Shown here: positions 30,447-54,626 of the stretch, one piece after another
Position numbering within the stretch: the stretch's first letter is position 1
Layout: each line of letters starts with the position of its first letter
Source: Candidatus Latescibacterota bacterium
Lineage (GTDB): Bacteria; Latescibacterota; UBA2968
Reading direction: 5' to 3'
Assembly (NCBI GenBank): GCA_965222605.1
Contig: OZ244960.1
Location: 2,976,001-3,040,000 of the forward strand
DNA length: 64,000 nt
Notes under the pieces: model-generated
The model's input: only the letters and a program-made list of their open reading frames with translations
Database searches by the model: none
Told to the model about the DNA's origin: nothing
Translations under genes and position numbers: made by a program

Positions 30447-33044
30447 GTGAACGGTGTACAACTGCGACAGCAGTTCATTCGTTCCATTCGCGCCCCCATG
30501 GTTATCGCCTGTCTATATGCCATAATGTGCATGCCAGCAGGGGCAGATCGCCTGCAGGAAAGCTTCGGTGGGGAGGAAGATTCGCTCGCTGCGGTTCTGA
30601 TCGCAGAACGCGCCGGGCCAGATAGCGCAGACGTCTATCGGGCATTGCCTCGGGATGAGAAAGCGCAATTCTTAATAGACTTTTGGCAACGGCACAATCC
30701 CGTGGTACTGCAATTTTATTACGATTATCATATCGGGCGTCGCTACCTGACGGTATCAGACGCTTTTTTTGAACGCGGTCGATTGATACCCCGGCGCTAT
30801 AAAACGCGCGCCGTACCACCAGATACCGCCCTGCTCGACGATGCTGTTGCACTATTTGAACAGATGCTACAGGACGATGCCGACAACCGCGTTGCCCTGT
30901 GCGCGCTGGGATATTGCTTGTTAGAACAGCACAAAGGTCTGGAAGCAGAACGCATTTTTGTGCGCGTTTTGGAAAAAGACCGGCGGTTTCTCATCGCGCG
31001 ACACGGCCGGGCACTGGCGTGTTTAATCCAAAAAAAACAGGTGCGCCGCGCACTGAATTTTTTTCAGGACACCGTATCTCTCGACGCGAAATACGAGGCG
31101 GCGTATTACAATTTGGCGATGTGCCACCTGGCGATGCGCAGCGTGGATATGGACCATCATTTTGGCAATGTGGTCAAGCGCTTCCCGCAACACCGCGATG
31201 CGTATTTTAAGCTGGGGATATTTTATGAATCGCTCTATTATTATGAAAAAGCCGTCAAGGCATTGTCAAAGCAGGTCGCTGTAAATCCAGCGCACAGCAT
31301 AGCAAGGGGTAGATTGGCGCGCGTGGCTATGGAATTGAAATATTTGAAACAAGAATTGCACACCACCACAGAACTGCGCGATCTCGCCCAGAAAGATCCC
31401 GAGCGTTATCTGCCACTCCTGGGCGCACAATATCTGGAATCGGGTGCGTACGAGCAGGCAGAAGCATCCTTTTCGCAATTTTTATCCCTCTTGCCGCAAA
31501 ATGAACGCGCCCTGTACGAAGATGTCACCTTGCTCCTATCGGCACAAGAATTTGAGACCTTTCGCATGATGGGAAAAGATGAGAAACGCGCATTGACCGG
31601 TTTGTTCTGGCGCAAAATAGACCCAACACCCACCACACCTGTTAATGAGCGCAGGTTGGAACACTACCGGCGCGTGAATTACGCGATACAAAACTTTTTC
31701 GAAGGCCGAATACCCTGGGATGCGCGCGGCGATGTATATATCCGTTTTGGTCATCCCGATCACAGAAGCTGGTCCGATCACCTCGTATTCGAAACCAATG
31801 CAAAAGTGATTCGGGTAAAAAATCGACTTATGGACCTCGCGGGAAATGCACTGCATGAAATCGTCCCTACAACATCGCTGCAGATAGAATCGTCTTTGGG
31901 CGCAAGCACCGTAATGAAGGTAACACCCGAGGTTCGGGGGCTGCCGATATTTCCCCTGCCGCACCAGGGAGCGTTATTTCGAGATGGCGCGTCTTTGAAC
32001 TACAAGTGGGAAACCTGGATTTACGCCCATATTGGCGAGGGATTTGAAGTGACATTTCTCGACGCCCTGGGCAATTTCGATTTTCAATTTCCCCAGCCGC
32101 CTATTGACTCGCCCAATCGATTGCTGTGGCTGCACCTCGCACCCGAAGCCGTGGTCGCACGGGTCGTCAACCGCACGCCCTCTGTTTACCGCTATCCATA
32201 TCCCGGAGATCCAATGCCGCTGCTTATGTCCGTAGCAGATTTCCAGGGAAATGGACGCGATACCCGCCTGGATGCCTTTATCGGCGTACCATGGAACGCA
32301 CTGAAAACGCAAAAACGGGGAACACAGATATCGGCTTCGGTAAATCGAATGTGGGTCCTCTTTGACGCACAGGGCACAGAAATTGCCCGCGACAGCCTGA
32401 ACACGCGAGCAACACAGCCCGAAACAGTTGACGACCCCGGCGTTTTATGGGTGGATCAGGTCACAACAGAAGTTAAACCCGGCCACTATCTAATGGCTGT
32501 GCGCGTAACCGACCCGGCTTCGGGAAAATTGCAAATTCACCGGCAACTCGTCGATGTAGAAGCATACAATGCCTCGACCCTGATGGTAAGCGACCTTGTC
32601 GTGGCGGGAAAAATTGCAACAATAGAAGCCCGTACAGAAGGCAAATTCATCCGAGACGAACTCGAAGTGCTCCCCCTGCCGTCACACACCTTTGCCCCAG
32701 AACAGCCAGTCTATCTGTACTATGAAGTGTATAACCTCTTTAGAGATGACACAGGACAAACGCATTACCGCGTGGATTATGCCGTACGCGGCAGCAAAAA
32801 TGCCGGCGCCCGGTTGCTAAAAGGCATCGGCACATTGCTGGGCATATCTGAAAAGCAAGAAGGGGTGCAAGTATCTTATGAACATCGGGGTAATACGGAA
32901 ACAGAACCCGTATATGTAGCCCTCAATGTAGCGGCAAAACCGGGACAAAAACTCACAATTGGCGTAACCGTAACCGACCTGAACCGCCCGGGAAAGCCAA
33001 CAGCGACAAAAGATATTTGGGTAGCGATAGGAAGTGAGAAGTAA
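30447..33044 (+). CDS. Exported GWxTD-like domain protein with TPRs (start GTG 30447 or ATG 30420)
   Basis: FWRKIDPTPTTPVNERRLEHYRRVNYA, PWDARGDVYIRFGHPD, C-terminal YLYYEVYNL. Confidence 0.85.
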   Translation: MNGVQLRQQFIRSIRAPMVIACLYAIMCMPAGADRLQESFGGEEDSLAAVLIAERAGPDSADVYRALPRDEKAQFLIDFWQRHNPVVLQFYYDYHIGRRYLTVSDAFFERGRLIPRRYKTRAVPPDTALLDDAVALFEQMLQDDADNRVALCALGYCLLEQHKGLEAERIFVRVLEKDRRFLIARHGRALACLIQKKQVRRALNFFQDTVSLDAKYEAAYYNLAMCHLAMRSVDMDHHFGNVVKRFPQHRDAYFKLGIFYESLYYYEKAVKALSKQVAVNPAHSIARGRLARVAMELKYLKQELHTTTELRDLAQKDPERYLPLLGAQYLESGAYEQAEASFSQFLSLLPQNERALYEDVTLLLSAQEFETFRMMGKDEKRALTGLFWRKIDPTPTTPVNERRLEHYRRVNYAIQNFFEGRIPWDARGDVYIRFGHPDHRSWSDHLVFETNAKVIRVKNRLMDLAGNALHEIVPTTSLQIESSLGASTVMKVTPEVRGLPIFPLPHQGALFRDGASLNYKWETWIYAHIGEGFEVTFLDALGNFDFQFPQPPIDSPNRLLWLHLAPEAVVARVVNRTPSVYRYPYPGDPMPLLMSVADFQGNGRDTRLDAFIGVPWNALKTQKRGTQISASVNRMWVLFDAQGTEIARDSLNTRATQPETVDDPGVLWVDQVTTEVKPGHYLMAVRVTDPASGKLQIHRQLVDVEAYNASTLMVSDLVVAGKIATIEARTEGKFIRDELEVLPLPSHTFAPEQPVYLYYEVYNLFRDDTGQTHYRVDYAVRGSKNAGARLLKGIGTLLGISEKQEGVQVSYEHRGNTETEPVYVALNVAAKPGQKLTIGVTVTDLNRPGKPTATKDIWVAIGSEK
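30451..30477 (+). repeat. 27-bp hairpin mini-element copy 1 (in frame)
   Basis: ACGGTGTACAACTGCGACAGCAGTTCA. Confidence 0.85.
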
Positions 33045-33107
33045 GAAGTGAGCACAGGCGCAGCCTACAACGAAGCGTAGCGAGTAACGCCACCCAACGC
33101 CACCCGC

Positions 33108-33142
33108 GCGGTGTACAACTGGCCGACTCTCAGGCCAGTTCA
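33108..33142 (+). repeat. 35-bp hairpin mini-element copy 2
   Basis: GCGGTGTACAACTGGCCGACTCTCAGGCCAGTTCA within the CACCCGCG/CGCGGGTG inverted repeat. Confidence 0.85.
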
Positions 33143-33177
33143 CGCGGGTGCTTCTTTACTTTTCACACTTCACACTT

Positions 33178-34161
33178 CTAAGCTGTCCCAACTTCGCGGG
33201 CGACTTTGGGGCGGCGGAGTTTCCAGATCAGACCATCCAGAACAAAGTGGGCAAACGAAGTCCCATAGGCAAAAAAGAGGAAGGCAAAAAGGGAATAGGT
33301 GTAAAAACCATAGAGAATGCCGCAGATAACAGCGGTAAAGAGAAATGTATTGCGTACAATATGGCTGGCGGCCTTATTGAGAAGTGGCGCGTCAAGAGCC
33401 GATGTGCGGACTTTATTTTTTATCGTAAGCGCGACCAGAGCGATGTATTCAGAAGCGTGATTGATACTGGTGGCAATATAGATGGCGCCAGCCGACAGGG
33501 TGGGACCAATGCCGTAGAGAAAGACCACAGAGCCAAAAAAGAGCAGTTTGGGAACGCTGATACCCTGGGCACCGCGAAATTCATAGACGAGCCAGGCCAG
33601 AGTGACCAGAATAGCCAATCCGTATAAAATGTGGGAGATAAGGAGCGGAGGCGTGAAGTCGAGCAGATTGCGAAGATAGTGCATGACCTTGACATCGGCT
33701 TCAGAACCAAAAAGGTAAAAGAAACCAGCCAAACCCCAGAGATACATCGTCCAGGCATCGAGGCGTTTGTGACCCCATTGAGCTTTGCCCGAGTAGATGC
33801 GGAGAATGCCGTATTTCTGACGAACAAAGTGAAAATAATTAAAAAGGTACCAGAAGGCGAACATCTCGGGTTCGTCAATTCGAAAAAAATAACAAAGACC
33901 CACAAACACAAAGCACAGGATGGGAATAAGCGTATAAAGGACGCGCGCGCGGCTAAATTCAGCGCGATCTAAATAGACCAGCAGAAACGTAAAGTACCGG
34001 TGCGTCGCAAAAAGAAACGTAACAGAGACAATGCGGATGGTATCGAAGTATTTGGGAAACAGGTAGGGGGCAAAAAAGAAAAGCAACCAGCCCAGGGTGA
34101 TGCAGGAAAGATCAACAACGGGCGTAACAACCCAGAGCGTGTGTGTTTTTTCAACGGACAT
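33178..34161 (-). CDS. Uncharacterised polytopic membrane protein
   Basis: ~8 TMs, FHFVRQKYG, HFVLDGLIWKLR. Confidence 0.7.
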   Translation of the reverse strand: MSVEKTHTLWVVTPVVDLSCITLGWLLFFFAPYLFPKYFDTIRIVSVTFLFATHRYFTFLLVYLDRAEFSRARVLYTLIPILCFVFVGLCYFFRIDEPEMFAFWYLFNYFHFVRQKYGILRIYSGKAQWGHKRLDAWTMYLWGLAGFFYLFGSEADVKVMHYLRNLLDFTPPLLISHILYGLAILVTLAWLVYEFRGAQGISVPKLLFFGSVVFLYGIGPTLSAGAIYIATSINHASEYIALVALTIKNKVRTSALDAPLLNKAASHIVRNTFLFTAVICGILYGFYTYSLFAFLFFAYGTSFAHFVLDGLIWKLRRPKVAREVGTA

Positions 34162-34211
34162 AGGTAGTAATTCCCACTTCTTGTATCTTTGTGTCTTTGT
34201 GTGAGGCCCTC

Positions 34212-35450
34212 TCACTTCTTTCCCGACCGCAAATCCAGACAAACCATTTCAGTGTGATTACGAAGATACAGTCTGCCATTAGCCAGCGTGGGTGGCGTCC
34301 AGCACCGCGGAGACAAAACCTGAGCGCTGGCTTTTTCTATGTACGCTTCTGGTATCGCCTCCACAAGAGCCAGTTTGCCCTGTTCTCCCAGGACGATCAG
34401 GTACCCATCGGCAAAGATGAGGGACCCCTTCTGAAAGCCGCGTTTGCGCCATTGCTCCTGCCCGGTCTCCGCGGCAATACACTTGAGAATGGCATTGTCA
34501 AAGCCATAGAGGTACCCCTTGCGATGAATAGACGTGGCAAAATGGTTTTTCATACTGCGATTGCGCCATACTTTTTTAACTGCAAACTGGCCGTTTTGAA
34601 AAATAAGCTGGATAACCGCCGCGCCTTTGCCATAGCCCGAAGAGATAAAGAGTCTATCCGGAGCGAGAAAAACAGGCGTCGCGGCATTGACATCGGGACC
34701 CGTTTGCCAGGGATGCCGCCACAAAAGTCGGCCATCTTTGGCAGCGACACCGACCAGACCAGAGACTGGAAAAAAGACGATTTGCCGGATATCAGAAACA
34801 GTAATAGCAATGGGTGACGCATAAGAAGGCGCGTCATCTTGAGAAGTCCATGCAACCCTGCCGGTAGTTTTATCAAAGGCGATAAAGGCTTTTCCAGAAG
34901 AACCCCCAACCTCGACGACCAGCAACTCGCCTTCCAGCAAAGGAGAAGTAGAAAAGCCCCAATGAGGGGGATCACTTATGAATTCAGTTTGAAAATGGTG
35001 AGACCATACTATTTCTCCGTCCTCAACATCAATTGCATAAAGCTGTCCGTTTGCACCCAAAAAGAAAGCCCGTTCTTTGTCAATAATGGGAGTAGATCGG
35101 GGACCGTTCCCGCCCTGCCAGTCTGAAAAATTGCTCCCGGTCTTAACTCGCCAGCGTTCTTGCCCAGTAGCGGCATCGAGACATACCGCGTATTCATCTT
35201 TCCCTTCTGCAAACATGGTATAGACTGCGCCCCGTGCAATGGCAATGCTCGAAAAACCCTCGCCCAGCGGTGTTCGCCAGAGAACAACAGGTCCGGAATC
35301 AGACCATTTTTTGAGCAACCCCGTTTCAGAGGAAACCCCATCGCGATTGGGGCCAAACCACTGCGACCAATCCGCAGCAAAGCCATTGCCCGTCAGGACA
35401 ACAGAGCCTGAGAGCAAGGCAATCAAAAAGGTGATAATGAGGATGCGCAT
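34212..35450 (-). CDS. PQQ-binding-like beta-propeller repeat protein, exported
   Basis: Signal peptide, DWSQWFGPNRDG, GNGPRSTP, WTPPTLANGRLYLRN. Confidence 0.9.
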   Translation of the reverse strand: MRILIITFLIALLSGSVVLTGNGFAADWSQWFGPNRDGVSSETGLLKKWSDSGPVVLWRTPLGEGFSSIAIARGAVYTMFAEGKDEYAVCLDAATGQERWRVKTGSNFSDWQGGNGPRSTPIIDKERAFFLGANGQLYAIDVEDGEIVWSHHFQTEFISDPPHWGFSTSPLLEGELLVVEVGGSSGKAFIAFDKTTGRVAWTSQDDAPSYASPIAITVSDIRQIVFFPVSGLVGVAAKDGRLLWRHPWQTGPDVNAATPVFLAPDRLFISSGYGKGAAVIQLIFQNGQFAVKKVWRNRSMKNHFATSIHRKGYLYGFDNAILKCIAAETGQEQWRKRGFQKGSLIFADGYLIVLGEQGKLALVEAIPEAYIEKASAQVLSPRCWTPPTLANGRLYLRNHTEMVCLDLRSGKK

Positions 35451-35511
35451 GGGAACTCCTCCTCTGTGTAAGAATCAAGTCACATAATCCGTGATTACTA
35501 TAATATAGGAC

Positions 35512-36555
35512 TTACGCAAGCACCATGTGAATAGTAGGCGCTTTGAGTTGTTGTTTCAAATAATCAGCTAACAAGCCGTATTTGACCTGATAAACGGATT
35601 GTCGTGTTTGATAGGCGACCTGTGCAAATCGCACCCAAACGAGGAAGGCACATCCGATGTGATTGCGAACAATGCGTGGCAATCGACATTGACACTTTTC
35701 AAGACCCGTCACTTGTTTTGCTTCTCGGTGAAATTGCTCAATTTTCCAACGCCAGTGACACGCCTGTTGTGCCACTTGGGTATCGTTTTGGGCCTGGTCG
35801 TTAGTCACGACATATTCCGTGCGTCTGGTAGAAGACATCACCCGAAATAATTTCACTTTATGGTCTCTTGGAAAGCCTCTGATTTTAATGCGTTTGCCAG
35901 CTTTTGTCTCGCTGACCGTCCAATCTAAGCGGTCTATGCGTTGATAGGGTTTAGCACCTGAAGAATCATCCACACGCCGATTCGATTTGAGAGGGCAGTA
36001 ATAGGTTTTTTGCAGTTTCTCAATGTGTAGCATGACCGTCCTGGTGGCATACCAGCTATCCATTAACACGGTCTGAAAAGGCAGTTTTCTGGCATAGACC
36101 AAGACAGATAACATCTCCTGTAGATGATCTAACTTGGTTTTGCCATCCCCCTCAGGGTCATAAATGCGATAGTCAATGAAAAAGAACCGATCCTGATCGG
36201 GATGAACTGCTGGCGCAGTTGTACCCCGTTCGACATAAACGCAAGTGACGACCCCGATGCCGTTGATGACCCCTTTGGCATTGCCGCTATATTGACGCCG
36301 CACCAACGCAATCTTGTGGGCATGACGCTTGTCCAGCACTGTGTCATCGAAGATCACATAGCCCTTTGGGGTCACTTGAATGTGGTCTTTGACGTGTTCC
36401 CACACCAGGCGAGGCGGGATGCGATCACCGGATAGGTAACGGTTGATCATATCATGACTGAACCTTTGGCTGTGGTCTGCGAAATGGGTCAGCGTATAGT
36501 TGATTGGACTGCTCAGCAAATACTGACAGTAATCCAAGCGGGTTGGTTTATCCAT
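35512..36555 (-). CDS. IS701-family DDE transposase
   Basis: FDDTVLDK, LMDSWY, RWKIEQFHREAKQ. Confidence 0.9.
   Translation of the reverse strand: MDKPTRLDYCQYLLSSPINYTLTHFADHSQRFSHDMINRYLSGDRIPPRLVWEHVKDHIQVTPKGYVIFDDTVLDKRHAHKIALVRRQYSGNAKGVINGIGVVTCVYVERGTTAPAVHPDQDRFFFIDYRIYDPEGDGKTKLDHLQEMLSVLVYARKLPFQTVLMDSWYATRTVMLHIEKLQKTYYCPLKSNRRVDDSSGAKPYQRIDRLDWTVSETKAGKRIKIRGFPRDHKVKLFRVMSSTRRTEYVVTNDQAQNDTQVAQQACHWRWKIEQFHREAKQVTGLEKCQCRLPRIVRNHIGCAFLVWVRFAQVAYQTRQSVYQVKYGLLADYLKQQLKAPTIHMVLA
36203..36229 (-). repeat. 27-bp hairpin mini-element copy 3 (in frame in transposase)
   Basis: Reverse complement ACGGGGTACAACTGCGCCAGCAGTTCA. Confidence 0.85.
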
Positions 36556-36674
36556 CCTCACCTCCTCGGTGCTCAGGTTAGGCTCCAATCCCGTCAATTT
36601 AAAGATTGGAAAACCTTGGGGCTATTGTTTTGCGTAAGTCCTAATAATAATAAATGGGTGATAAAAAGTGAGAG

Positions 36675-36781
36675 GTAGGAGGAAAATCCTTTTCCCGACC
36701 CGGATCGCGGCAGGGATGCCGCTCCAACAGTAGTCTTGAATTGGCCTACCTATCCGTGTTCATCTGTGTTCATCTGTGGTT
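36675..36781. repeat. GTAG-type REP pair plus TTCATCTGTG tandem repeat
   Basis: GTAGGAGG...TCGCGGCAGGGATGCCGCTCCAAC; TATCCGTGTTCATCTGTGTTCATCTGTGGTT. Confidence 0.55.
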
Positions 36782-38007
36782 GCATTTCCCACCCGCTCCA
36801 ATTCCTGAACAACAGCCATATGCCCTTTTGCCCTCGCCCACATCAGGGCTGTAACCCCATCTTTATCCTCAATTGCGACATCGGCACCGCCTCTTAAAAG
36901 CGCGCGGACCGCCTGGACATGTCCTTCAAACGCGGCGGCCATCAACGGCGTGCGGCCCTCGCGGTCGGGCGCATTGACATTTGCGCCCACTTCCAATAAA
37001 AACTCGATTCGTGCGGTTTCACCATCCCAGGCTGCACCCATCAAAGCCGTATTCCCCATATTGTCCCTAACGTTGAGATCTGCGCCACCTGCCACAAGCA
37101 CCCGCACAATTTGGCGATGATCTCGTAAAACAGCCCGCATCAAAGGCGTTTCGCTGGCACTACCTCTAATATCGGGAATTCCGCCTTTTGTCAGAAGCGT
37201 ATCGACAATAGCGGTATGACCTTTGAACGCGGCCAGTAGCATGGGAGAATCGCCAAAATTATCCCTGGCATTGGGATCAGCACCTACATTCAGGAGGGCA
37301 TCCACCATATCTGTTTGACCTTCGACTGAAGCCCAGGTGAGAGCCGTCCGGTTGTCCTTATCTCTGATATTGGGATCCGCACCGTTTTCAAGGAGAACTT
37401 TCACTGCATACGTATGACCTGCAACAATCGCGCTCATCAGAGCCGTGCGCTCGTCGTTGTCCTGCGCGTTGACATCCGCGCCCGCGTCTATCAGAGCTTG
37501 AAGCGTAGTTGTGTGACCTTCTACTGCCGCGGGCATCAACGCAGTGGCTCCATGGGTGTTTTTTAAATGGAGATTCGCGCCTTTTTTCAGGAGAACGTTG
37601 ACGATATCTGTATGCCCATCAAAGGCAGCGGACATCAAGGCGGTGGCACCGTGTTTGTCCTGAATATTGGGGTCAGCTTTGCCCGACAAAAGGGCCTGCA
37701 CCGTCTGGATATGTCCTTGAAAAGCCGCGACAATCAAAGCCGTTTCCCCGCTCATACCCTGAGCATTGGGATCGGCACTTTTTTTTAAAAGCGCATTGAC
37801 GATATCTGTATGCCCACCTCTGGCTGCAACCATCAGCACGGTAGTACCGTATTTGTCCCGAGCATTTGCATTATCGCCAGCACTTAGACGCGCCTGTACA
37901 CCGGACAGGTTTCCCTTTGCTGCGGCTTCGAGGAGTTGTGTGCCATTGGCATGCGCCGCTGCAGAAAGGCTGAGGACAAGGAGAAATGTAAAGGTAATCC
38001 TGGACAT
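36760..38007 (-). CDS. Secreted ankyrin repeat protein (~11-12 repeats)
   Basis: Signal peptide ending AAAHA, repeated GxTALMxAAxxGHxxxVxxLLxxGAD. Confidence 0.95.
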   Translation of the reverse strand: MSRITFTFLLVLSLSAAAHANGTQLLEAAAKGNLSGVQARLSAGDNANARDKYGTTVLMVAARGGHTDIVNALLKKSADPNAQGMSGETALIVAAFQGHIQTVQALLSGKADPNIQDKHGATALMSAAFDGHTDIVNVLLKKGANLHLKNTHGATALMPAAVEGHTTTLQALIDAGADVNAQDNDERTALMSAIVAGHTYAVKVLLENGADPNIRDKDNRTALTWASVEGQTDMVDALLNVGADPNARDNFGDSPMLLAAFKGHTAIVDTLLTKGGIPDIRGSASETPLMRAVLRDHRQIVRVLVAGGADLNVRDNMGNTALMGAAWDGETARIEFLLEVGANVNAPDREGRTPLMAAAFEGHVQAVRALLRGGADVAIEDKDGVTALMWARAKGHMAVVQELERVGNATTDEHR

Positions 38008-38066
38008 ATAGAAAAAGTAAAAGGTCCCCGAAAAAAGTCAAAGAAGATTCGGCGTCCAATTCATGC

Positions 38067-38939
38067 TCACGGAACGGGAATATTGAGATCAAAGGTCTGG
38101 CCGAGCCACTGATAGTAGAAACGTTGTGATGTGTCTTGCAGAATCTGGTCTTTCCAGCCAGCGGCAAGACGTTCGACCTCGGCAGTATTGCCGGCCATAC
38201 ACAGCGCGTAAAGATACAGGTAGCGTAGCGCCGGATCGGCAGACTCTGCGCGTTGGTAATACTGTGCAGCCAGAGTATAGTCGCGCTCGGCCAGCGCGCG
38301 TGCAGATAGATAGGGAAGATAAGGCGTTTCCGCATCGCCCTTTTTCAAGCGGGTATCAACCGCATAGAGCAGATCGTCCTGAATCTGGAGATGCCACAGC
38401 GGGAGAGTCCGCAAATCGGTCTGCGTGTGAAGCGTGTGAAGCGTAGCGATGCGAGTCCCCTGATCATGTATTTCGTCAGCCTGGGAAATTAGTGCAGCCT
38501 CGAGAAGGCGCTGTGCTTCAAAATAAACGAGCGTGCGCATCCGCATGTCATGAGGCCAGGCATTGTGAATAAAGGTACTCTTTTCAAAGCGCTCGCGAGT
38601 GAGCAGGGGATTCATCCAGCGGGCGTAGAACGCTTGATGGGGTTCGCGGTTAAAAAAACCCACAGAAAGGCGTTTGGGATAATTATCTACCAGCGGCGGG
38701 GTATCGCGCGTGAGCGCGTTGAGATGGTCGGCGTCAGACATAAAGAGCGCACCGAGTTGCTCGGGTTGCTCCAAACCGAGGGCGCGAAGTTCGGAACGCA
38801 CGACAGGATCGCGCCACTGTCGGCTAAAAAAGACCTCAGATAGGGAATAGGACGCATTTCGAGAGCCAGCGAGCATCCAGTTAAAACCCGCCCCAGCCCA
38901 AAGAGAAGCGTCTTCAAAAACATTGCAAAACGCGCGGAT
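38067..38939 (-). pseudogene. C-terminal fragment of a spermidine synthase-like membrane protein
   Basis: Reads IRAFCNVFEDASLWLGAGFNWMLAG...PPLVDNYPKRL; no plausible start or RBS at the break point. Confidence 0.6.
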
Positions 38940-39855
38940 GGGCAGACTTCGGACGTCCCTGCAAGATGTGGCGGTCCATGATGATTACGGGCTTGAGGTC
39001 ACTGTAAACGATTTTGAGGCAATAGACTTTGAATTGAACCCCAACCGCTCCCGTTTTGGCACCACATCTTACAATCAGGTAAGCACTGACCGCTACCAGC
39101 CTACAATGGAAGTATATTACGGCGTACCCCTGGCAAATTTGCCAGACAGCGTTCAGGCGACTGGCATTTTGGAACGGGGTATTGCGGTATTTGACAGCAC
39201 ATGGAGACCGGTCTATCGAAAGATGGCTCCCCTGCCTTTTTCGGTGGATGCGATGGGTTCGCTGGGAGCGGGAGATCTTGCCGTTGATCAAATCGCGCTC
39301 AATCTACAGCCGGGCAACTATCACCTGGGGGTGGAGGTACGCAGTCTGCAAGGCAATCTGCGGGGTGCTTATACCCGGTCGCTAACAGTGGAGCCATATA
39401 CAGGTCCTTCGCTGATGCTTTCCGACATCGAGATGGCCGGTCTGGTGGTGCAAGACCCTTCCTCAAAAGTAAAAGGGGGACACAAAGTCGTGCCTATGCC
39501 ATCCAAAACCTATTTACCGGGACAACCTGTGACGATTTATTACGAGGTCTATGGGTTGACACACGACGAATTGGGTCAAACGCACTACCAGATGGATTAC
39601 AAAATATCACCCCGCAAAGGCAAACCCCTGGCAGTGACGATTTTGCGCGCGGTCGGAAAACTCCTGGGTATTGAACAAAAGAAAGTGGTAACGATTTCTT
39701 ACGAGCAGACAGGCACGCAGAAAACAGAACACAATTATCTGGAGATTGACGTGAAGGGATCAGAGGCGGGGCGCTATGAATTAGAGGTGGCAGTGACGGA
39801 TTTGAATACGGGAACAATGGTCGCCAAGGACGTAATATTTTTTATTGCCAGGTAG
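38938..39855 (+). pseudogene. C-terminal fragment of a GWxTD-like protein
   Basis: Homologous to the C-terminal third of 30447-33044 (LMLSDI, PMPSKTY, IYYEVYGL, GKLLGIE); no signal peptide or GWxTD core. Confidence 0.65.
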
Positions 39856-45492: not shown

Positions 45493-45527
45493 AAAAAAGA
45501 GCGCGTCAATAAAGACTCGCTCTTTCA
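45492..45527. terminator. Bidirectional terminator
   Basis: AAAAGAGCG...CGCTCTTT between convergent genes. Confidence 0.55.
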
Positions 45528-45554
45528 TTTAACGAACTCAAGTCGCGGCGCTTA

Positions 45555-46847: not shown

Positions 46848-46865
46848 AAACTATTTCCCGAAGTC

Positions 46866-48785
46866 TCACTCTTCCACCAACGCCAATTTTTGATCGTAAA
46901 CAGCCCGATCCTTTAACAGACGGACAGCTTCCTGGAACTGCTTATCACCCTTCAGCGTCGCTAAAATTTTGCCGTTGGTACCCCACACGCGATTGGCCAA
47001 TGCCCGTTCAATCTCCAGACGGATATACGGCTCGGCCTTATTATAATCGGCTTTGCGCTCGCGCTCTGCAGCCTGTGACAATTGACTGAGTGCAGTTATC
47101 GTGTCGTCTGTCAATACATCCTTTTCTTTTAGTGATTTTTCGACCTCTTGCACTTGAATTTCTGTATCCGTTTTATAGTCAAAACCCTCGGCATTAGCTG
47201 AATCTGCCATGAAAGTCCAGAATTGATCGACAATATCTTCGGGCAATGTATAGTCTTCAAACCGATTGGGGAATGATTGCGTCGTTGCAAAATCAACCGC
47301 AAAATCAAAAATCGATCCCTTGCGCAATAACGCCATCACCAGCCGCGGCCTGCGCTCTTGTTCAACCACCACATCGGGCTTAATCCCACCGCCGCCATAA
47401 ACTTTGCGCTTGTTCACGCGCGTTGTAAATACCTTTTCGGGATCGATATTTTCAGGCCCATTATGCTCGCTGGAAGCCAAACCCAACAACCCTTCCAATC
47501 GCATTCCAAGTACTTCTTCAGCCAGGTCCTTGTCCAGATCAAATCTTTCCTCGAGTTCCGTAATAACATCTTCGCGCCGTTCAGCCTGACCAATAATGCC
47601 AAAGAGTTCATAAGCCGAGACCTGTGTTGAATTTCCCACTGTAATCTCAATGGGGCCGCCGCGATATCGGCGTTTCTCTGCATTGTGAATGCTGCGCCCG
47701 CTCGGCGTATAATAGGCTGCTGTTGTCAGCTTCAAAGCTTTATCGCCCTGGCGACCCAATTGGCGCACGGTTTGTACAGATCCTTTGCCAAATGTTTGCG
47801 TGCCCACAATCAACCCCCGATCCCAATCCTGAATTGCCCCTGCGACAATTTCTGATGCACTGGCACTGCGCTCGTCAACCAGGATCACGAGTGGAATATC
47901 GGCGGGCAATATGGTGTCGTGTCGCGTTTTGTGACTGCGGCTCTGATCCGAAAGACGACCTCTGGTTGACACGACCAGCCGATTGGATGGCAAAAACTTA
48001 TCGACCACATCAACCGCTGCGTTGAGCAAACCGCCCGGATTGCCGCGCAGATCCAGAATAATCCCCGTGGCACCATTATTGAGCGAGTTGATCAATGCCT
48101 GTTGCAACTCCCCTCCTGTGCGTTCAGTAAATCGAGAAGAACTGAGCCAGGACATGGAAATATAACCGATATCGGGATCGACTTCGCCCGGAATTTGTAC
48201 ACTTGAAATGTCAATGCGCGCCCGAGTAATTGGCTGATCAAATGGTTCCTTCATTCCTGGTCGCTCAATTTTAATGGTCACGCCAGCACCTGGATTACCC
48301 CGCAAAATATTGACAATTTCGCGCAGGTCCTTGTCAAAAGTCGGATCCCCGTCAATGGCGATGATCCGATCTCCCACAACGAGCTTCGAGGTGTCGGCAG
48401 GCGTGTCTTCAATAACATTCATCACAACCGGAGGACCATCATCCTTCCCTCGCTTGCTGATCATAATGCCCAGTCCACCAAATTTGCCCTGTGTTTCTAT
48501 CTGAAGTTGCTTGAGGTCATTGCTATCAAAAAAGGTAGTATAAGGATCCAGATCCCACAACATGCCGGAAATGGCAGCCTTGCTCAAATCCTCTGGCTTC
48601 AGCTCATTGACATACTGGTTGAAGAGCAGGCGGTAGGCTTCGTTAATCTCCTCAAAACCGCGCCCCAATTGCTCATAAGTATCTTCGCCGGTCACCAACC
48701 GGGAATCGAGTACCAGATAAACACCCAAAACACCAATTAAAGTTGTAAAAATGGCGATTCTTCTTCGGAATCTCGCTCCAAACAT
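46866..48785 (-). CDS. S41 family carboxyl-terminal protease (CtpA-like)
   Basis: LDPYT, FGGLG PDZ, DLRGNPGG, SASASEI, TFGKGSVQ, YYTPSGR; GGAGG RBS before ATG 48785. Confidence 0.93.
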   Translation of the reverse strand: MFGARFRRRIAIFTTLIGVLGVYLVLDSRLVTGEDTYEQLGRGFEEINEAYRLLFNQYVNELKPEDLSKAAISGMLWDLDPYTTFFDSNDLKQLQIETQGKFGGLGIMISKRGKDDGPPVVMNVIEDTPADTSKLVVGDRIIAIDGDPTFDKDLREIVNILRGNPGAGVTIKIERPGMKEPFDQPITRARIDISSVQIPGEVDPDIGYISMSWLSSSRFTERTGGELQQALINSLNNGATGIILDLRGNPGGLLNAAVDVVDKFLPSNRLVVSTRGRLSDQSRSHKTRHDTILPADIPLVILVDERSASASEIVAGAIQDWDRGLIVGTQTFGKGSVQTVRQLGRQGDKALKLTTAAYYTPSGRSIHNAEKRRYRGGPIEITVGNSTQVSAYELFGIIGQAERREDVITELEERFDLDKDLAEEVLGMRLEGLLGLASSEHNGPENIDPEKVFTTRVNKRKVYGGGGIKPDVVVEQERRPRLVMALLRKGSIFDFAVDFATTQSFPNRFEDYTLPEDIVDQFWTFMADSANAEGFDYKTDTEIQVQEVEKSLKEKDVLTDDTITALSQLSQAAERERKADYNKAEPYIRLEIERALANRVWGTNGKILATLKGDKQFQEAVRLLKDRAVYDQKLALVEE

Positions 48786-48798
48786 GGGGCGCCTCCAG

Positions 48799-48825
48799 GC
48801 GGTGTACAACTGCGTCAGCAGTTCA
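48799..48825 (+). repeat. 27-bp hairpin mini-element copy 4
   Basis: GCGGTGTACAACTGCGTCAGCAGTTCA. Confidence 0.85.
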
Positions 48826-48872
48826 TTTTTGATAAACGGCAATCAATTAAGGGTTGAAATCATAACGGCTAT

Positions 48873-49499
48873 TTAGTTCTCCAGCATTAGATCGGCAACC
48901 GCCTTCTTAACGTCTTCAAACACATCGCTTATGGGCCGAGAGCCATCAACCCGAAAAATGCGGTCGGGTTCAGATTTGTATGCCTCTTTAAAACCCTGTC
49001 GAACCCTCCGAAAAAATGCTTCATCTTCCGACTCAATGCGATCTCCCCCGGTTCCCCAACCGCGTTTTCGCGCAGTCTGTAAATCAACATCTAACCAGAT
49101 TGTGATATCTGGCATCAAACCACCCGTAGCCACGTTTTGAATCATTCTCAAGTCATCGAGATCTAATCCGCGACCATAGCCCTGATAAGCCAGTGTAGAA
49201 TCGACATAGCGATCTGAAATCACCACTTTGCCGGCATCCAGAGATGGTCGAATCAATTCGTTGACGTGCTGCGCGCGATCCGCTGAAAATAAGAACATCT
49301 CGGCGATTGCATCAATCTCGTCCTGCGATTGCTTTTCGAGTGCAAGACGCCGAATTCCCTGACCGAGGTCTGTATCACCCGGCTCATAAGTAAATACAAC
49401 ATTATACCCACTACCCCGCAGATAATCAAACAGCAACTTGGCCTGGGTGCTTTTTCCGCCTTTATCAGTGCCTTCAAATGAAATAAAAAAACCGGACAT
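48873..49499 (-). CDS. tmk: Thymidylate kinase
   Basis: FISFEGTDKGGKSTQ, ADRAQH, SDRYVDSTLAYQG. Confidence 0.95.
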   Translation of the reverse strand: MSGFFISFEGTDKGGKSTQAKLLFDYLRGSGYNVVFTYEPGDTDLGQGIRRLALEKQSQDEIDAIAEMFLFSADRAQHVNELIRPSLDAGKVVISDRYVDSTLAYQGYGRGLDLDDLRMIQNVATGGLMPDITIWLDVDLQTARKRGWGTGGDRIESEDEAFFRRVRQGFKEAYKSEPDRIFRVDGSRPISDVFEDVKKAVADLMLEN

Positions 49500-49522
49500 T
49501 TGTTCCCAATTTTTCTGCAAAG

Positions 49523-49555
49523 AAAAAAAGAACCCGGCGGTACCTCCGGGTTTTG
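49523..49555 (-). terminator. Intrinsic terminator upstream of tmk
   Basis: Minus strand AACCCGGAGGTACCGCCGGGTT + T-tract. Confidence 0.6.
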
Positions 49556-49580
49556 TCATCCTGTCTTCGACAATTAGGCC

Positions 49581-50174
49581 TTATGATTTTGTCAGCTTGC
49601 GAAAGTGAATGACCCGCTCCATCGCGGTAAAATTTCCCAACAGCGCAATTGCCCAGACCACAACGATCAAACTGATATCCCCAACCAGAGGGACGATCAC
49701 CCCGCCAGCACCAATGGCAATAACGCGCTCGGGACGCTGCATAAACCCAACTTTGCACTCCGCCCCAAGACCCTCAATGCGCGCGCGCACATAACTCACC
49801 ATCAGAGATCCTGCCAGTGCAAAAAAGACCGCCGAGCTTGTCCAGAGATCATCAGCTCGTATAAAACTGATCGCAATGCCAAACCAGATGAAAATTTCGG
49901 AATATCGATCAACAGTGGAATCGAGAAGCGCACCAAATTTGGATTCTGTCTTGCCCTTGCGCGCCACCTGCCCGTCAAGAAAATCAAAAATACCCGCAAC
50001 AAGCACCGTCAACCCGGCCCACATATACAATCCAAAGCCAAAGAGCACGGCGGCACCTATATTGAAAACAAACCCGATCATGGTCAACAAATCGGGAGTA
50101 AAGCGTTTTCCGACGAGATATTCTGTAGAAGGTGCCAAAATCTCGGCGACATCATCTTTAACTTTTTCAATCAC
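49581..50174 (-). CDS. CDP-alcohol phosphatidyltransferase (PIP-synthase-like)
   Basis: DFLDGQVAR...FGALLDSTVDRYSE, SYVRAR.EG, RPER. Confidence 0.92.
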   Translation of the reverse strand: MIEKVKDDVAEILAPSTEYLVGKRFTPDLLTMIGFVFNIGAAVLFGFGLYMWAGLTVLVAGIFDFLDGQVARKGKTESKFGALLDSTVDRYSEIFIWFGIAISFIRADDLWTSSAVFFALAGSLMVSYVRARIEGLGAECKVGFMQRPERVIAIGAGGVIVPLVGDISLIVVVWAIALLGNFTAMERVIHFRKLTKS

Positions 50175-50341
50175 TGTTAAAACCCACGAATAGTGAAGTT
50201 TTTATTTGAATTTTATGACGTTAGCACAAATCCAAATATAGGCCAATTTTGGAGGTGTTGCAAGCGAAATTTCCCTTCAACGCAAGTTGAAAAACCACCC
50301 TAAAATTTCTGCATTTCAGTGGCAGAAAACACAAGATTTAT

Positions 50342-50446
50342 TGTGGAAAATTATGTGGATAACTTTTCCTCAATCGGACATTTTCAGTCCTTTATTGAAA
50401 AAAATCAACGATTTAAATTGTTAACACTATTATCCACTTTTCCACA
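50342..50446. promoter_or_regulatory. DnaA-box cluster flanking a consensus IHF site
   Basis: TGTGGAAAA 50342, TGTGGATAA 50354, AATCAACGATTTA 50403, TTATCCACT 50430, TTTTCCACA 50438. Confidence 0.75.
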
Positions 50447-50493
50447 TTCAATGCGACAAGTTCCCTTTGATTGCTTTTCCTCCTCACATCTGT

Positions 50494-51183
50494 CTATCGA
50501 AACACGTCTATGCGCTTGATCACCACAGGTTTTATTGGTCGATCTCCCGGTGCGGTTTCGACCATTGCAATTTTGTTGACCACATCCATTCCCTTTGTCA
50601 CTTCTCCAAAAGCAGTATATTGAGTGTCCAAATTGGGCGAAGTCCCATGCATAATGAAAAATTGTGACCCGGCACCAGCCGACACATCTGAAATGCGTGC
50701 CATAGAAAGAATGCTCGGTACGTGTTTTATATCATTAAATTCATGAGGGATATGCACGAGCGGTCCCCCCATTCCATAGTCAGATGGATTATCGTCCTTT
50801 GAATTTGGATCGCCTCCCTGAATCATGAAATTTTTAATTACGCGATGAAACTTGGTATTGTCATAAAACCCGCTTTCTGCTCGCGTGATAAAGGCAAAAC
50901 AATGAACAGGTGCCTTTTCGGGATGGAACTTCAATTCGATATCGCCCATATTCGTCGCGATACGCGCCTTCACATTCCGAATCTGATTTACCAGAAACAG
51001 CATTCGGCCTCCGATTTCGCCGGCTCGCTCAATCTGGTTTTGTGCCTTGTTCAAAGAGCTTTTCAACGACCGATTCTCATTGTTCAACTTTTCATTGGCT
51101 TGTTTTAAATCTTCCATTCCGCTACCTCCACAGGCCGCTATCGAAAGACATAGCCCTAAAAAAACAAATCGTTTCATAGACAT
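50494..51183 (-). CDS. Cyclophilin-type peptidyl-prolyl isomerase, lipoprotein
   Basis: IAAC lipobox, FHRVIKNFMIQGGDP, SMAR, GSQFFI, YTAFG. Confidence 0.93.
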   Translation of the reverse strand: MSMKRFVFLGLCLSIAACGGSGMEDLKQANEKLNNENRSLKSSLNKAQNQIERAGEIGGRMLFLVNQIRNVKARIATNMGDIELKFHPEKAPVHCFAFITRAESGFYDNTKFHRVIKNFMIQGGDPNSKDDNPSDYGMGGPLVHIPHEFNDIKHVPSILSMARISDVSAGAGSQFFIMHGTSPNLDTQYTAFGEVTKGMDVVNKIAMVETAPGDRPIKPVVIKRIDVFR

Positions 51184-51409
51184 TTCTCCTTTAAATCATA
51201 TTTCTAAATATAAGCCCAGACGCTCATCATAGGCAACAATCCGTTTGCACATCTCAGCGAAAATAAACAACCACCTGTCTGCAGGTGATTGTTACAATGA
51301 CTAAGCGTGGAAACAATACCCCCCAAATCTCTCTTGACAGTGGTTCTCCTCCACGCTTTATTGTTCGCGGAACAACACAAACCTCCACATTCCCAAGGAC
51401 AACATCATT

Positions 51410-52270
51410 ATGCGACTTGTTACATTTACTCACCAGGGACAGCGTCGGCTCGGTGCTCGATCAGGCGATTCGATCATTGACCTCAGTGCTGCCGATCCTT
51501 CGATTCCCTCCACCATGAAAGAATTTCTCGAAGCAGGCGATAATGCCATTTCCAGAGCCCAGGCAGTGATTGATAAAGGGGGCCATGCCATTTCTGCAAC
51601 AGATGTCACTGTTCATGCTCCCATCGACAATCCAGAAAAAATCATTTGCATAGGTCTCAACTACGCCGATCATGCCGCCGAGAGCGGTATGCCCATTCCC
51701 GACGAACCCATTGTCTTTTCCAAATATGCATCATCCATCATCGGACCCGATGAGAATATCGTGGCTCCCAGCGCGAGTTCCCAGGTTGACTACGAAGTCG
51801 AGCTTGTTGTCGCTATTGGCAAACGCGGTCGCAACATCTCTGAAGAAGATGCCCTCAACCACGTTGCGGGCTACATGGTCGGACACGACGTGAGTGCTCG
51901 TGATTACCAGCTCGAAAAACCAGGAGCACAATGGATGATGGGCAAAACCTTTGATACATTTGCTCCAATAGGACCTGATCTGGTCACAACCGACAATGTG
52001 CCCGATCCTCATAATCTGGGCATTCGCTGTATCCTCAATGGCGAAACAGTGCAGGATTCCAACACCTCTCAACTGATTTTCGGCGTACCCAAACTCATTG
52101 CTTATCTCACACATGTATTCACGCTTACCCCCGGAGATTTGATTTTTACCGGCACACCTCCCGGTGTGGGTATGGGGCGTGAGCCGCAACTCTGGCTCAA
52201 ACACGGCGACCATGTGATATGTGAAATTGATGGACTGGGACGACTCGAAAATCCGGTTGTTTCAGATTGA
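51410..52270 (+). CDS. Fumarylacetoacetate hydrolase family protein
   Basis: KIICIGLNYADH, DYEVEL, DVSARD, GDLIFTGTPPGVG. Confidence 0.93.
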   Translation: MRLVTFTHQGQRRLGARSGDSIIDLSAADPSIPSTMKEFLEAGDNAISRAQAVIDKGGHAISATDVTVHAPIDNPEKIICIGLNYADHAAESGMPIPDEPIVFSKYASSIIGPDENIVAPSASSQVDYEVELVVAIGKRGRNISEEDALNHVAGYMVGHDVSARDYQLEKPGAQWMMGKTFDTFAPIGPDLVTTDNVPDPHNLGIRCILNGETVQDSNTSQLIFGVPKLIAYLTHVFTLTPGDLIFTGTPPGVGMGREPQLWLKHGDHVICEIDGLGRLENPVVSD

Positions 52271-52327
52271 GATATCCCAAAGTCACGGAAAACACTTCCA
52301 GAGGATTTGATGTTTGGGGAGGGAATG

Positions 52328-52678
52328 TCAAACAGAGGGCAAACGGCTCCGCAATTCTGTCAGCTCGCGTTCGAGATGATCCAATCTGAACGAAACTTCA
52401 CGCTCGTGCAACAGCCGATCAGCAGTACCCATACCATCGTGTATGATCGAAAGCCTGCGCTTGAGCTGTTCGCAGATGTGACCGACTTCTGATATATCGG
52501 CCTCGACCTGAGCCTGGCGTGTGCCTATTTTGTGAATCGCATCCTGCACATTTTGGAGGTCAGATCGAATTTCTACAAATTGCCTGGCGACCATTTGAGC
52601 GAAATTTTCTTGCGAAGACTCAATGGCGTCGCGAACGGTTTCTCGAATGAGATCGAGTTCGCCAGCATCAAAGGCCAT
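52328..52678 (-). CDS. Hypothetical coiled-coil protein
   Basis: MAFDAGEL... heptad-rich; the upstream ORF extension is low-complexity. Confidence 0.55.
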   Translation of the reverse strand: MAFDAGELDLIRETVRDAIESSQENFAQMVARQFVEIRSDLQNVQDAIHKIGTRQAQVEADISEVGHICEQLKRRLSIIHDGMGTADRLLHEREVSFRLDHLERELTELRSRLPSV

Positions 52679-52979
52679 GGGCGAATTCCTGAAAAGACAG
52701 ATGGAGTACGAAAAAATATCCGTACTTGAATGCTGGAAAAAAAAGGGGGAGAAAAAGGGGAAATGGGGAGGATAAGCCTGACGATCTGGGGAGAAAGGGG
52801 AATCAGAGCAAGATCGGTTTACCCTCCCCACCCAATAAAGAGAGACTTGAATTCAGGCAAAATATAATTTAACTGAATCGCGTTTCTCTTTATTTTTCAG
52901 GACATTATGTCCTGAACACACACAAACAAGTGTGTGTTCAGTGCCTTCTGTGTGGGGAGTAACAGAATGCACTGACCAA

Positions 52980-53008
52980 AATATACACTGTCAAGTTTGT
53001 GTTGTCAA
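52980..53008 (-). promoter_or_regulatory. Near-consensus sigma70 promoter
   Basis: Minus strand TTGACA-17 bp-TATATT. Confidence 0.7.
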
Positions 53009-53127
53009 GAAAAAATGTTTTCATCTAACTCATCTATTTCTCAAGAATTTAGCTTGCCACGCGGCTCTTTTCAATTCATATTATGTTATGAAACTTTTAA
53101 ATGCGACTGACCTTTTGGGAGGGGTGT

Positions 53128-53631
53128 ATGAGGTTTGGTGAAATAATAAAACAAGCTCGTACTGGCCGATTTAGCCAGCAGGCTTTGGGTGAAAGTATTG
53201 GGGTGTGGGGCACTTATATCTATCAAATAGAAAAAGGCGAACGCATACCATCCGACGACGTGTGTACGAATCTTGCAAAAGCACTCGATCTCGATCCTCA
53301 ATTGCTTCTTTTTTTGGCGTATAAAGAACGCGCACAGAAAACAACCGAAGGCCGCAGACTTTTTACACAGATGGAAAAACTGATGACAGACCCTGTCATT
53401 AGCCAGGTAATTGCCGACCCAAAAATGCTTGACTCAGGCATTGTCAAAGCACTTCAGATTCCCAATATCCGCAAGGTACTCAAGAACAAGCAGTGGTGCG
53501 AAGCCCTGAACGCGAGTGCTTCAACTACAGACCGGGATATTCCCGAACTCATTAAGATTATCACCCAGATCCCCGCCCAACAATGGCAAGCATTGCTCAG
53601 TACAGCAAAAGCTTTTGCAGGCATAACTTGA
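53128..53631 (+). CDS. XRE-family helix-turn-helix regulator
   Basis: FGEIIKQAR..SQQALG....TYIYQIEKGERIPS...LAKAL; GGAGG RBS. Confidence 0.88.
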   Translation: MRFGEIIKQARTGRFSQQALGESIGVWGTYIYQIEKGERIPSDDVCTNLAKALDLDPQLLLFLAYKERAQKTTEGRRLFTQMEKLMTDPVISQVIADPKMLDSGIVKALQIPNIRKVLKNKQWCEALNASASTTDRDIPELIKIITQIPAQQWQALLSTAKAFAGIT

Positions 53632-53738
53632 TCATATTAATGAAATTGAGGTGTATAATTTTCTACAGGATATTTCTGAAAGAAGCCACAGAATAGCGAT
53701 TACCATTACTGGCATGGCCTGAAATCCCCATTAAAATC

Positions 53739-53777
53739 AAAAAAGCCCGTTTTCTCGCGTTGAGAAACGGGCTTTTT
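53739..53777. terminator. Bidirectional intrinsic terminator
   Basis: AAAAAGCCCGTTT...AAACGGGCTTTTT. Confidence 0.8.
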
Positions 53778-53844
53778 ACATATTCTCTCAGGTTGTGATT
53801 ATCAATAATAAGTTAATCTACACTTCTATTTACTAACTTCCTAA

Positions 53845-53860
53845 TGTTTCACGTGGAACG
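53845..53860. promoter_or_regulatory. parS site 1
   Basis: TGTTTCACGTGGAACG vs consensus TGTTTCACGTGAAACA; origin-proximal. Confidence 0.8.
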
Positions 53861-53892
53861 GTTTACAACTGGTCGCAGTCCAGACCAGTTCA
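53858..53892 (+). repeat. 35-bp hairpin mini-element copy 5 (in parS 1; supplies the rsmG stop)
   Basis: ACGGTTTACAACTGGTCGCAGTCCAGACCAGTTCA. Confidence 0.85.
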
Positions 53893-54528
53893 ACGTCTTT
53901 TAAGAAAGACAAAGGAACGTTTTCGTTCCATAAATGGTAAAGTCAAAGTGGCTTCAGTAGCATAGATGTCGCGTGGAACACCGTTTGTGAACTCGCTAAG
54001 AGCACATGGCCCTTTCATTGAAATAAGCACACCGCGGGGGGCGAGAAAAGGTTCAACCCAATTCCAGAGTTGGGGAAGCCGTGCAACTGCACGGGCTGTA
54101 CCAATCAGAAATTTACCCGCGAATGAGGAATCTCCAATAAGGTTCTCAGCGCGACTTCTGATAGCGAAAGTGCTTTGAAGGCCGAGCGCAGTAATCGTTT
54201 CCTGGAGAAAAAGGGCTTTCATGCGGGCGGGTTCGAGGAGATAAACTTCGAGGTCGGACCTCATAATCTTGATCACAATACCCGGCAGACCAGCACCCGA
54301 ACCCAAATCGAGGAGAGGTCCATCCATTGGAAGGTGCGGTACCAGCGAGAGACAATCGAGAATATGACGCTCCCATATAAAATTGCGGTCATTGCGGGAG
54401 ATCAATCGAACGCGAGCCGACCAATTGGTAAGCAAATTGACGTATTGCTGGAGCCTGACGACCTGTTCCTGAGAAAAAGAAAGGTCAAAGGACCTCTCCG
54501 CAAGCTCAATGGCCTCATTGGGTTGCAT
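53890..54528 (-). CDS. rsmG: 16S rRNA m7G527 methyltransferase
   Basis: RHILDCL, LDLGSGAGLPG, RAE, TARAVA, MKG. Confidence 0.95.
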   Translation of the reverse strand: MQPNEAIELAERSFDLSFSQEQVVRLQQYVNLLTNWSARVRLISRNDRNFIWERHILDCLSLVPHLPMDGPLLDLGSGAGLPGIVIKIMRSDLEVYLLEPARMKALFLQETITALGLQSTFAIRSRAENLIGDSSFAGKFLIGTARAVARLPQLWNWVEPFLAPRGVLISMKGPCALSEFTNGVPRDIYATEATLTLPFMERKRSFVFLKRR

Positions 54529-54575
54529 TGGATATACCTTTAGAAAGACGTAAGACGACCGCCCAACCCCTCTTA

Positions 54576-54626
54576 TGTTTCACGTGAAACGGTGTACAAC
54601 TGGTCGTTTCTCAGACCAGTTCAACA
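54576..54626. promoter_or_regulatory. parS site 2, interrupted by the mini-element
   Basis: TGTTTCACGTGAA[35 bp]ACA; excision restores perfect TGTTTCACGTGAAACA. Confidence 0.88.
54589..54623 (+). repeat. 35-bp hairpin mini-element copy 6
   Basis: ACGGTGTACAACTGGTCGTTTCTCAGACCAGTTCA. Confidence 0.88.

Follow-up and report, generated by a model that had tools for sequence, protein, structure and literature searches.

A very small non-autonomous hairpin element of a Latescibacterota genus whose insertion replaces target bases

Introduction

How does a repeat without coding capacity, under 40 nt long, come to lie in a transposase gene, beside a ribosome-binding site and in two parS-like palindromes of the same chromosomal region? 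The spread of bacterial repeats of 20–40 nt, such as repetitive extragenic palindromes (REPs) and small dispersed repeats (SDRs), is a long-standing open question. We examined it in a stretch of 64,000 nt from a Candidatus Latescibacterota bacterium (assembly GCA_965222605.1, contig OZ244960.1, positions 2,976,001 to 3,040,000; called the window here, and the source of all positions unless another contig is named). The window is the replication-origin region (dnaA, yidC, mnmE, rsmG) of a 6.34-Mb single-contig genome, labelled G000. A sequence-only reading of the window had proposed a family of 27- and 35-bp hairpin elements that insert cleanly and are moved by an enzyme of HUH/Y1 type encoded elsewhere. 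Our analysis shows that the family is a minimal non-autonomous mobile element; its mobility, its ends, its target and the overwriting of target bases are described below, together with the mechanisms that could account for them.

Results

Six copies were found at the starts given before (30451, 33108, 36203 on the minus strand, 48799, 53858 and 54589). The pattern RCGGKKTACAACTG gave these six matches in the window and none in 100 dinucleotide shuffles. Over the whole of G000 the strict pattern recovered 35 copies, and RRYGGKKTACAAC-N8-30-GTTCA had 43 matches vs. 0, 0, and 0 in three order-3 Markov genomes; once degenerate copies are counted, the total reaches ∼64–75. The element is composed of a GRRY leader, a GGKKTAC foot, an AAC…GTT stem-loop of free stem sequence, and a CA end. 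Its size is ∼28–37 nt, and a longer form of ∼48–50 nt also exists. The left boundary had been placed at RCGG and needs to be moved: the element starts four bases before GG, and the conserved left end extends two bases beyond RCGG. In 346 contexts, G was found at -4 in 269, A at -3 in 288, a purine at -2 in 330 and a pyrimidine at -1 in 331. The most frequent leaders (n = 205) were GAGC (58), GAAC (40), AAGC (22), GGGC (12), GAGT (9), and GGAT (9), which can mostly pair with GTTC.

The copies are true mobile insertions, as had been proposed: empty alleles were found at both parS-like sites, in an IS701 paralog and in ∼15 host repeats. Each parS-like palindrome carries a long-form copy, one at 53856..53892 (+), downstream of rsmG (left part of the palindrome from 53845), and one at 54587..54623 (+), between rsmG and mnmE (left part from 54576). 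At the first site 4 of the 21 loci in the genus were empty and 17 filled; at the second site 5 of 21 were empty and 16 filled. The short-form copy at 36203..36231 (-) lies in frame within a transposase gene of IS701 type, and its empty allele is a paralog that reads AA where the copy begins with GA. Hosts also found in the empty state include REP-like palindromes, tandem repeats of 7–9 nt, repeats flanking GxxExxY genes, larger repeats resembling miniature inverted-repeat transposable elements (MITEs), and the left end of a TnpB element. The element inserts in either orientation, very often inside other repeats and palindromes, and copies nest within other copies and within REP-like, heptamer and GxxExxY-associated repeats. 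It also spreads passively within larger repeats that it has already entered; the high copy numbers of genomes G014 and G018 are partly such hitch-hiking. At four loci orthologous to the 53858 site (L007, L011, L014, and L016), the parS-like palindrome carries the element on both arms in opposite orientations, often with further nested repeats.

Comparison of alleles showed the same exchange throughout: an empty S-AA-H corresponds to S-GRRY…GTTCA-H when filled, with the target AA overwritten and nothing duplicated. The view that the element inserts cleanly could not be maintained, as the AA is replaced in the paralog, parS and host-motif comparisons alike. Removal of RCGG…TTCA does restore the length of the empty site, but often not its sequence; at 36203, for instance, GA is left in place of the paralog's AA. 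The removal looked clean because the net gain equals 27 or 35 bases. The absence of a target-site duplication, on the other part, was confirmed. Among the parS alleles, all nine empty ones read GTG-AA-AC and 29 of 33 filled ones GTG-GA-AC. Fourteen non-parS host motifs, for which the counts take in overlapping loci and hitch-hiked copies, gave AA in 99 and GA in 1 of 109 empty alleles, and G as the first base in 74 of 79 filled alleles (parS "GA" empties, which were self-matches to filled alleles, were dropped). An independent automated pairing yielded 36 host rows with a 4-nt empty junction, after removal of one self-match and apart from nine further rows that were one base shorter or ambiguous. 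The empty junction was AA in 35 of these rows, and the filled one began with G in 29 and with A in 6, with one tie. A minority class gains one base less (nine rows, some of them ambiguous, and nested copies too).

The bases around the junction are also restricted. S was present at -5 in 85 of 99 host-deduplicated contexts, AG targets are tolerated, and the base after the element was G in merely 3 of 346 contexts. Where an empty host has G after AA, the filled site has C; this was seen in several unrelated hosts and in one orthologous trio, and it is associated with G at -3 (14/19 vs. 9/80, Fisher p = 1.5e-7). On the right the junction is constant, the end variant GTTAA appearing only twice in 21 genomes, and on the left it varies.

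All six window copies fold as single-stranded DNA into the stems described before. The loops are also as described, except that in the short form the first loop base is not always G (9/24 alleles). Folding z-scores were approximately -2.0 to -2.8 in the four copies tested on both strands. The middle part is mostly 10 or 18 nt long, with 9, 12, and 13 nt found too. Stem covariation was borne out: pairing persists without any stem filter, and compensatory changes occur on both sides. In 57 distinct 18-nt middles, Watson-Crick pairing was found in 56 at pair 1 (TA 51, GC 5), in 57 at pair 2 and in 50 at pair 4 (CG 25, TA 24), and in short alleles, defined by sequence alone, the stems were Watson-Crick in 21–22 of 24 (these alleles share descent, and the counts are not independent events). 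The loop pairs were Watson-Crick in 0–7 of the 57 long alleles, and the loop columns are free save the final A. GNA-type triloops suit DNA hairpins; judged by eye, such triloops are present in the 26-nt forms. A search of the window against Rfam gave 0 matches at the gathering score. The hallmarks of a MITE were not seen, as the termini share merely a 4-nt imperfect match and there is no target-site duplication. In integrons the attC crossover falls at G/TT, with TTRRRY coming from the target. An attC site was rejected here: the empty sites have no GTTC on the element's strand.

The remaining copies of the window differ in age and setting. The short-form copy at 30449..30477 (+) has a GAAC leader, a GGTGTAC foot, a 6-bp stem, a GACA loop and a GTTCA end, and lies in frame at the N-terminus of an 874-aa open reading frame (ORF) containing TPR. 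It is private to G000 among 16 aligned orthologues, and the N-terminus differs there between relatives. The G000 allele is 36 nt longer than those of G014 and G004, and the element makes up only 27 of these. The long-form copy at 33106..33142 (+), with a GGCC stem and the degenerate leader GCGC, is intergenic and sits within a small palindrome; no clean orthologous empty site was found for it among the aligned genomes or in the contigs of four sequencing runs. The short-form copy at 48797..48825 (+) lies just upstream of the conserved start of an S41 peptidase gene, beside a ribosome-binding site. Its presence in 10 of 11 aligned genomes, with loops that differ between species, marks it as an old insertion.

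The host of the 36203 copy is a DDE transposase gene of IS701 type at 35512..36597 (-) (Pfam DDE_5/DDE_Tnp_1), which carries the copy and is not its mover. A second, near-identical IS701 copy elsewhere in the genome holds the same insertion. The whole IS701 element (35500–36642) is missing from the contigs of two of the four sequencing runs (X3 and X4), with five letters that fit either side, so the insertion must be recent and polymorphic. An IS701 paralog (G000:C1 ∼3417400–3418440) has inserts of a different tiny hairpin family, unlike the element in sequence. Positions 24581–33044 of the window form one cluster of two DUF6785/DUF6784 membrane proteins plus TPR proteins.

All 21 genomes of the genus carry the family, with 14–261 copies in each, a ∼19-fold range, and natural copies number over a thousand; ten genomes of the same taxonomic family lack it. 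In 147 other Latescibacterota genomes the maximum was one match per genome; 14 of these genomes had a single match, and among the nine listed single-match genomes outside the genus the hairpin was found in only two (G038 and G039). In a pattern scan of a contig database, 77 of 80 listed matches (of at least 111) came from Candidatus Latescibacterota and the other three had no features of the family; no cyanobacterial match was among these 80. Metagenome contigs gave 15 loci, of which 11 were true copies within the same host repeats and four were chance matches. Viral contigs gave 13 foot matches, none with the family hairpin and end. In G000, 42 of 68 copies fall outside even a crude ORF call, and the majority is thus intergenic; by eye, there was no orientation bias relative to neighboring genes. 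The literature searched held no description of the element family or of the overwriting junction, most subscription papers being outside reach.

A mobilizing enzyme was sought in the window and around the copies. As had been stated before, the window encodes none: among its 46 ORFs scanned, the only transposase is the IS701-type DDE host gene. When 245 copy-adjacent ORFs were clustered, no mobile enzyme recurred, and Pfam analysis of 92 of them gave one tyrosine recombinase (at one locus), one RuvC, and one Uma2. No long version enclosing an ORF was found in G000 among the matches listed. A Y1 gene or REP-associated tyrosine transposase (RAYT) bracketed by copies, which the sequence-only reading had envisaged, was not found; 1 of 22 Y1 loci has a copy, itself inside a REP-like palindrome. 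Other candidates were rejected as movers. Y2/IS91 occurs in 1 of 21 genomes with no copy nearby. The reverse transcriptase domain RVT_1 occurs in three of five genomes tested and was not found in G000 or G018; GIY-YIG occurs in all five, and among 22 reverse transcriptase and GIY-YIG loci two held a true copy. IS110 is present in four of the five and was not found in G014; its targets are long and its ends unrelated to the element. GxxExxY genes (16/21 genomes) are flanked by host repeats and not by the element, and four-helix-bundle genes were negative. The insertion-sequence ends compared in G000 at 30 of 35 TnpB loci (five gave no ORF) and at three Y1 loci differ from those of the element save for a short stem resemblance.

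Two of these gene groups deserve a description of their own. G000 contains a 20-copy TnpB family of IS605/IS1341 type without its own TnpA, and some of its copies hold the mini-element in the left end; in a post hoc comparison, the core of its right-end hairpin resembled the short-form stems. GxxExxY genes (PF13366) at L525–L527, L535, L539, and L542 are bracketed by clade-specific tandem repeats of 9–11 nt, which suggests that GxxExxY and its repeats are a separate nuclease-repeat mobile system.

The element is in turn a target. An IS110 of ∼1.6 kb (PF02371, 445-aa frame) has the TG of the element foot as its insertion point. It was found in G000 on contig C1 at ∼951973, 3341150–3342770, 4319157–4320765, and 4859677 (L363, L369, L374, and L378), and also in G004, G013, G019, and G020. 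Thirteen two-ended copies with an element-type target were collected from four genomes: 10 lie in whole elements, one in a foot-only relic, and two in one orthologous look-alike site. The right end of this IS110 holds two segments, one equal to the left half of the foot and one to the reverse complement of its right half. Two IS110 relatives land in a different repeat (TTCATCTG-type), and both segments are changed to match. Bridge RNAs encoded in the right end have been described for IS110 elements (PMC11208160), and the two segments fit predicted bridge-RNA guides programmed against the element foot. A short IS110 derivative lies near 6101655. A second IS110 family, in G010, G016, and G018 (56, 7, and 18 Pfam matches, respectively; L254–L283), inserts in heptamer repeats of CCTCTT type. 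In many copies (e.g., L009, L010, and L014, and in G000 near 4600311 and 5819388), the foot has a 24-nt insert, bordered by TGA at either end, in place of CAA; this insert is also found in other repeats and has itself been entered by the element.

Discussion

The description of the family as a minimal non-autonomous mobile element stands on its empty alleles, its covarying hairpin, the lack of duplication and the lack of an enzyme in the window. As for its movement, we favor an HUH-like strand transferase that acts in trans, with target flaps replaced during joining, and we give this reading a probability of about one half. The element would move as a folded single strand, because a duplex circle of 27–35 bp is too short to bend. 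That a constant foot adjoins a stem whose sequence is free suggests recognition of the folded strand by a protein. Such an enzyme would be encoded elsewhere, possibly present only at times, and an HUH/Y1-like strand transferase is the likeliest class. The target may be picked by base pairing: S-A-A-H resembles the G-R-R-Y left end of the element, and leader and target would both be able to pair with the 3' GTTC, with G·T wobble allowed and G·G excluded. Both the tolerance of AG targets and the exclusion of G from the third target base would follow from the proposed pairing. Joining would then leave a target flap of 1–2 nt, which is usually replaced by element sequence.

Several observations weigh against this proposal. 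Most "empty" alleles are paralogous repeats or come from other species and are not the exact ancestral site, the host rows are not fully independent, and the contigs of the four sequencing runs, from close strains, gave no clean filled/empty pair. No mobilizing enzyme was found in the window, among the neighboring ORFs or by domain searches in the genus. Thirteen of 21 genomes had a detected Y1_Tnp, but G010, G014, and G016, with 151–226 copies, were not among them; absence from a single genome is weak evidence, since these three hold TnpB elements though no Y1 was found in them. No replichore bias was seen in G000 (30 vs. 34 of 64, p = 0.71). Two segments of G018 gave orientation counts of 16 vs. 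18 and 6 vs. 3, and what looked like a strand bias in G010 and G018 arose from the way matches were listed. We infer the pairing model from sequence logos alone. IS608-style guide registers, tried by hand and by mutual information, were rejected: the one link to stand out, -3/+1, is at odds with them. None of the proposed mechanisms explains why G at the third target base turns into C, or why this is linked to G at -3. Finally, known HUH transposases are described as joining precisely (PMC5027513), so the replacement of bases needs an extra step.

The loss of two bases could instead come from break repair. A nuclease of the host repeats, of GxxExxY/PD-(D/E)XK or GIY-YIG type, would cut at AA and leave a short overhang; repair would copy or ligate the hairpin, with the overhang lost and neighboring bases converted, and no dedicated transposase would be required. 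Such capture or homing accounts for the 2-nt loss, the base conversion at both junctions and the preference for host repeats, and candidate nucleases are at hand in the host-repeat-flanked GxxExxY genes of 16 of 21 genomes and the GIY-YIG domains of all five genomes tested. However, a copy lies near just 2 of 25 GxxExxY loci examined, the same junction rule holds in hosts as unrelated as parS, IS701, and REP-like palindromes, and a foot that does not vary implies that the element itself is specifically recognized. We regard this explanation as unlikely.

More doubtful is the classical peel-and-paste transposition of IS200/IS605, which the sequence-only reading had in mind. It would insert the element precisely, and the base changes would reflect rare G-variant targets. 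The foot and hairpin, the lack of duplication and a TCA-H end like the TnpB right ends of G000 all suit it, copies with AAGC or AAAC leaders fit a clean insertion, and the one GA empty allele could be an excision footprint. But GA in 1 of 109 empty alleles vs. G first in 74 of 79 filled ones largely refutes it, and no fixed target of 4–5 nt is kept intact 5' of the element. The HUH/Y1 reading in its original form fails in two respects, precise insertion and lagging-strand bias (30 vs. 34).

We attach little probability to an RNA-templated route, in which target-primed reverse transcription by a trans-acting enzyme would give an exact 3' junction, a variable 5' junction and a small deletion. 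In retro-insertions the right end is typically constant, the left end varies and a little of the target is lost; the element shares these features, with 1–3 nt of target lost. Against it, RVT_1 was not found in two of five genomes tested (G000 and G018), no 5'-truncated series was noticed, the orientation relative to neighboring genes showed no bias by eye, and the loops are not of GNRA or UUCG type.

Still less probable is the exchange of 2-nt cores by a serine or IS110-type recombinase, with only the second A matching (left GA, right CA, target AA) and repair favoring the element strand. The conserved net length (27/35) agrees with it, and the mixture of A and G seen at -4 in a single host resembles a heteroduplex that was resolved. 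Yet the reciprocal product, a GTTAA end, is nearly absent (2 in 21 genomes), and the IS110s found have long targets and unrelated ends, with none found in G014. An artefact, or a protein-binding or regulatory site that the host maintains, can be dismissed as the origin of the family: the 48799 copy is old and adjoins a ribosome-binding site, but filled/empty polymorphism, nesting, insertion in insertion-sequence genes, the ∼19-fold copy range and the 21 separate assemblies refute it, while later co-option of single copies is possible.

We conclude that this is a new, very small non-autonomous element, closest to the SDRs of Nostoc and to REPs and REPINs. Elhai et al. are said to have described the Nostoc SDRs in 2008 as mobile repeats of ∼20–30 nt whose secondary structure is conserved, which favor short tandem repeats and for which no enzyme is known. 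By these features the two are alike: both are structured and dispersed repeats under ∼40 nt that have empty alleles and lack coding capacity. SDR5 is described as inserting precisely within HIP1 (PMC4390886), whereas the present element overwrites target bases; Nostoc also belongs to a different phylum, and the comparison is one of descriptions. With REPs and REPINs the element shares a short hairpin, a fixed 5' motif, a dispersed and mainly intergenic location and its role as an IS110 target. For REPINs, the intermediate has been proposed to be a hairpin that carries a single-stranded tail at its 5' end (PMC8266576, PMC3733652, and PMC3116915). The REP superfamily carries GTAG or CGTC tags before the palindrome, and "GTAC" is absent from the main text of that survey (PMC3733652). 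In contrast, the element has the foot GGKKTAC and no GTAG/CGTC tag, is a singlet with defined ends rather than an inverted doublet, is not accompanied by a RAYT bracketed by copies, and enters REP-like palindromes rather than being one. By the lack of a tag and of a bracketed RAYT, it does not belong with the REP/RAYT elements.

IS200/IS605 elements are reported to insert precisely beside an intact tetra- or pentanucleotide and to prefer the lagging-strand template (PMC5027513). The element resembles them in its hairpin, the lack of duplication, the TCA-H-like right end and a possible base-pair-guided choice of target; it differs in having one hairpin and not two ends, in the loss of target bases and in the absence of lagging-strand bias. 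The IS110 that targets it recalls IS621 and ISPpu10 with their REP-type targets, where the right-end guides match the target likewise (PMC11208160; bioRxiv 10.64898/2026.03.19.712850). In the present case the IS110 lands in what is itself a mobile element of very small size, and the likeness concerns the parasite only.

In most genomes of the genus, both origin-proximal parS-like sites have been invaded by the element. The IS110 guide that appears to be programmed against it would be a natural example of bridge-RNA retargeting with covarying guides. The junction signature, with AA overwritten and G read as C, makes any candidate enzyme testable with one short oligonucleotide. It is also conceivable, though we put this forward only tentatively and doubt it ourselves, that a single 28-nt DNA hairpin combines the roles of the two transposon ends with that of a guide for its own targeting, the 3' GTTC pairing with the leader and then with the target, and that an undescribed enzyme rewrites two to three target bases on joining. 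If true, the family would rank as the smallest targeted class of mobile DNA, and one that supports a small ecosystem of parasites in the form of the programmed IS110 and the 24-nt insert.

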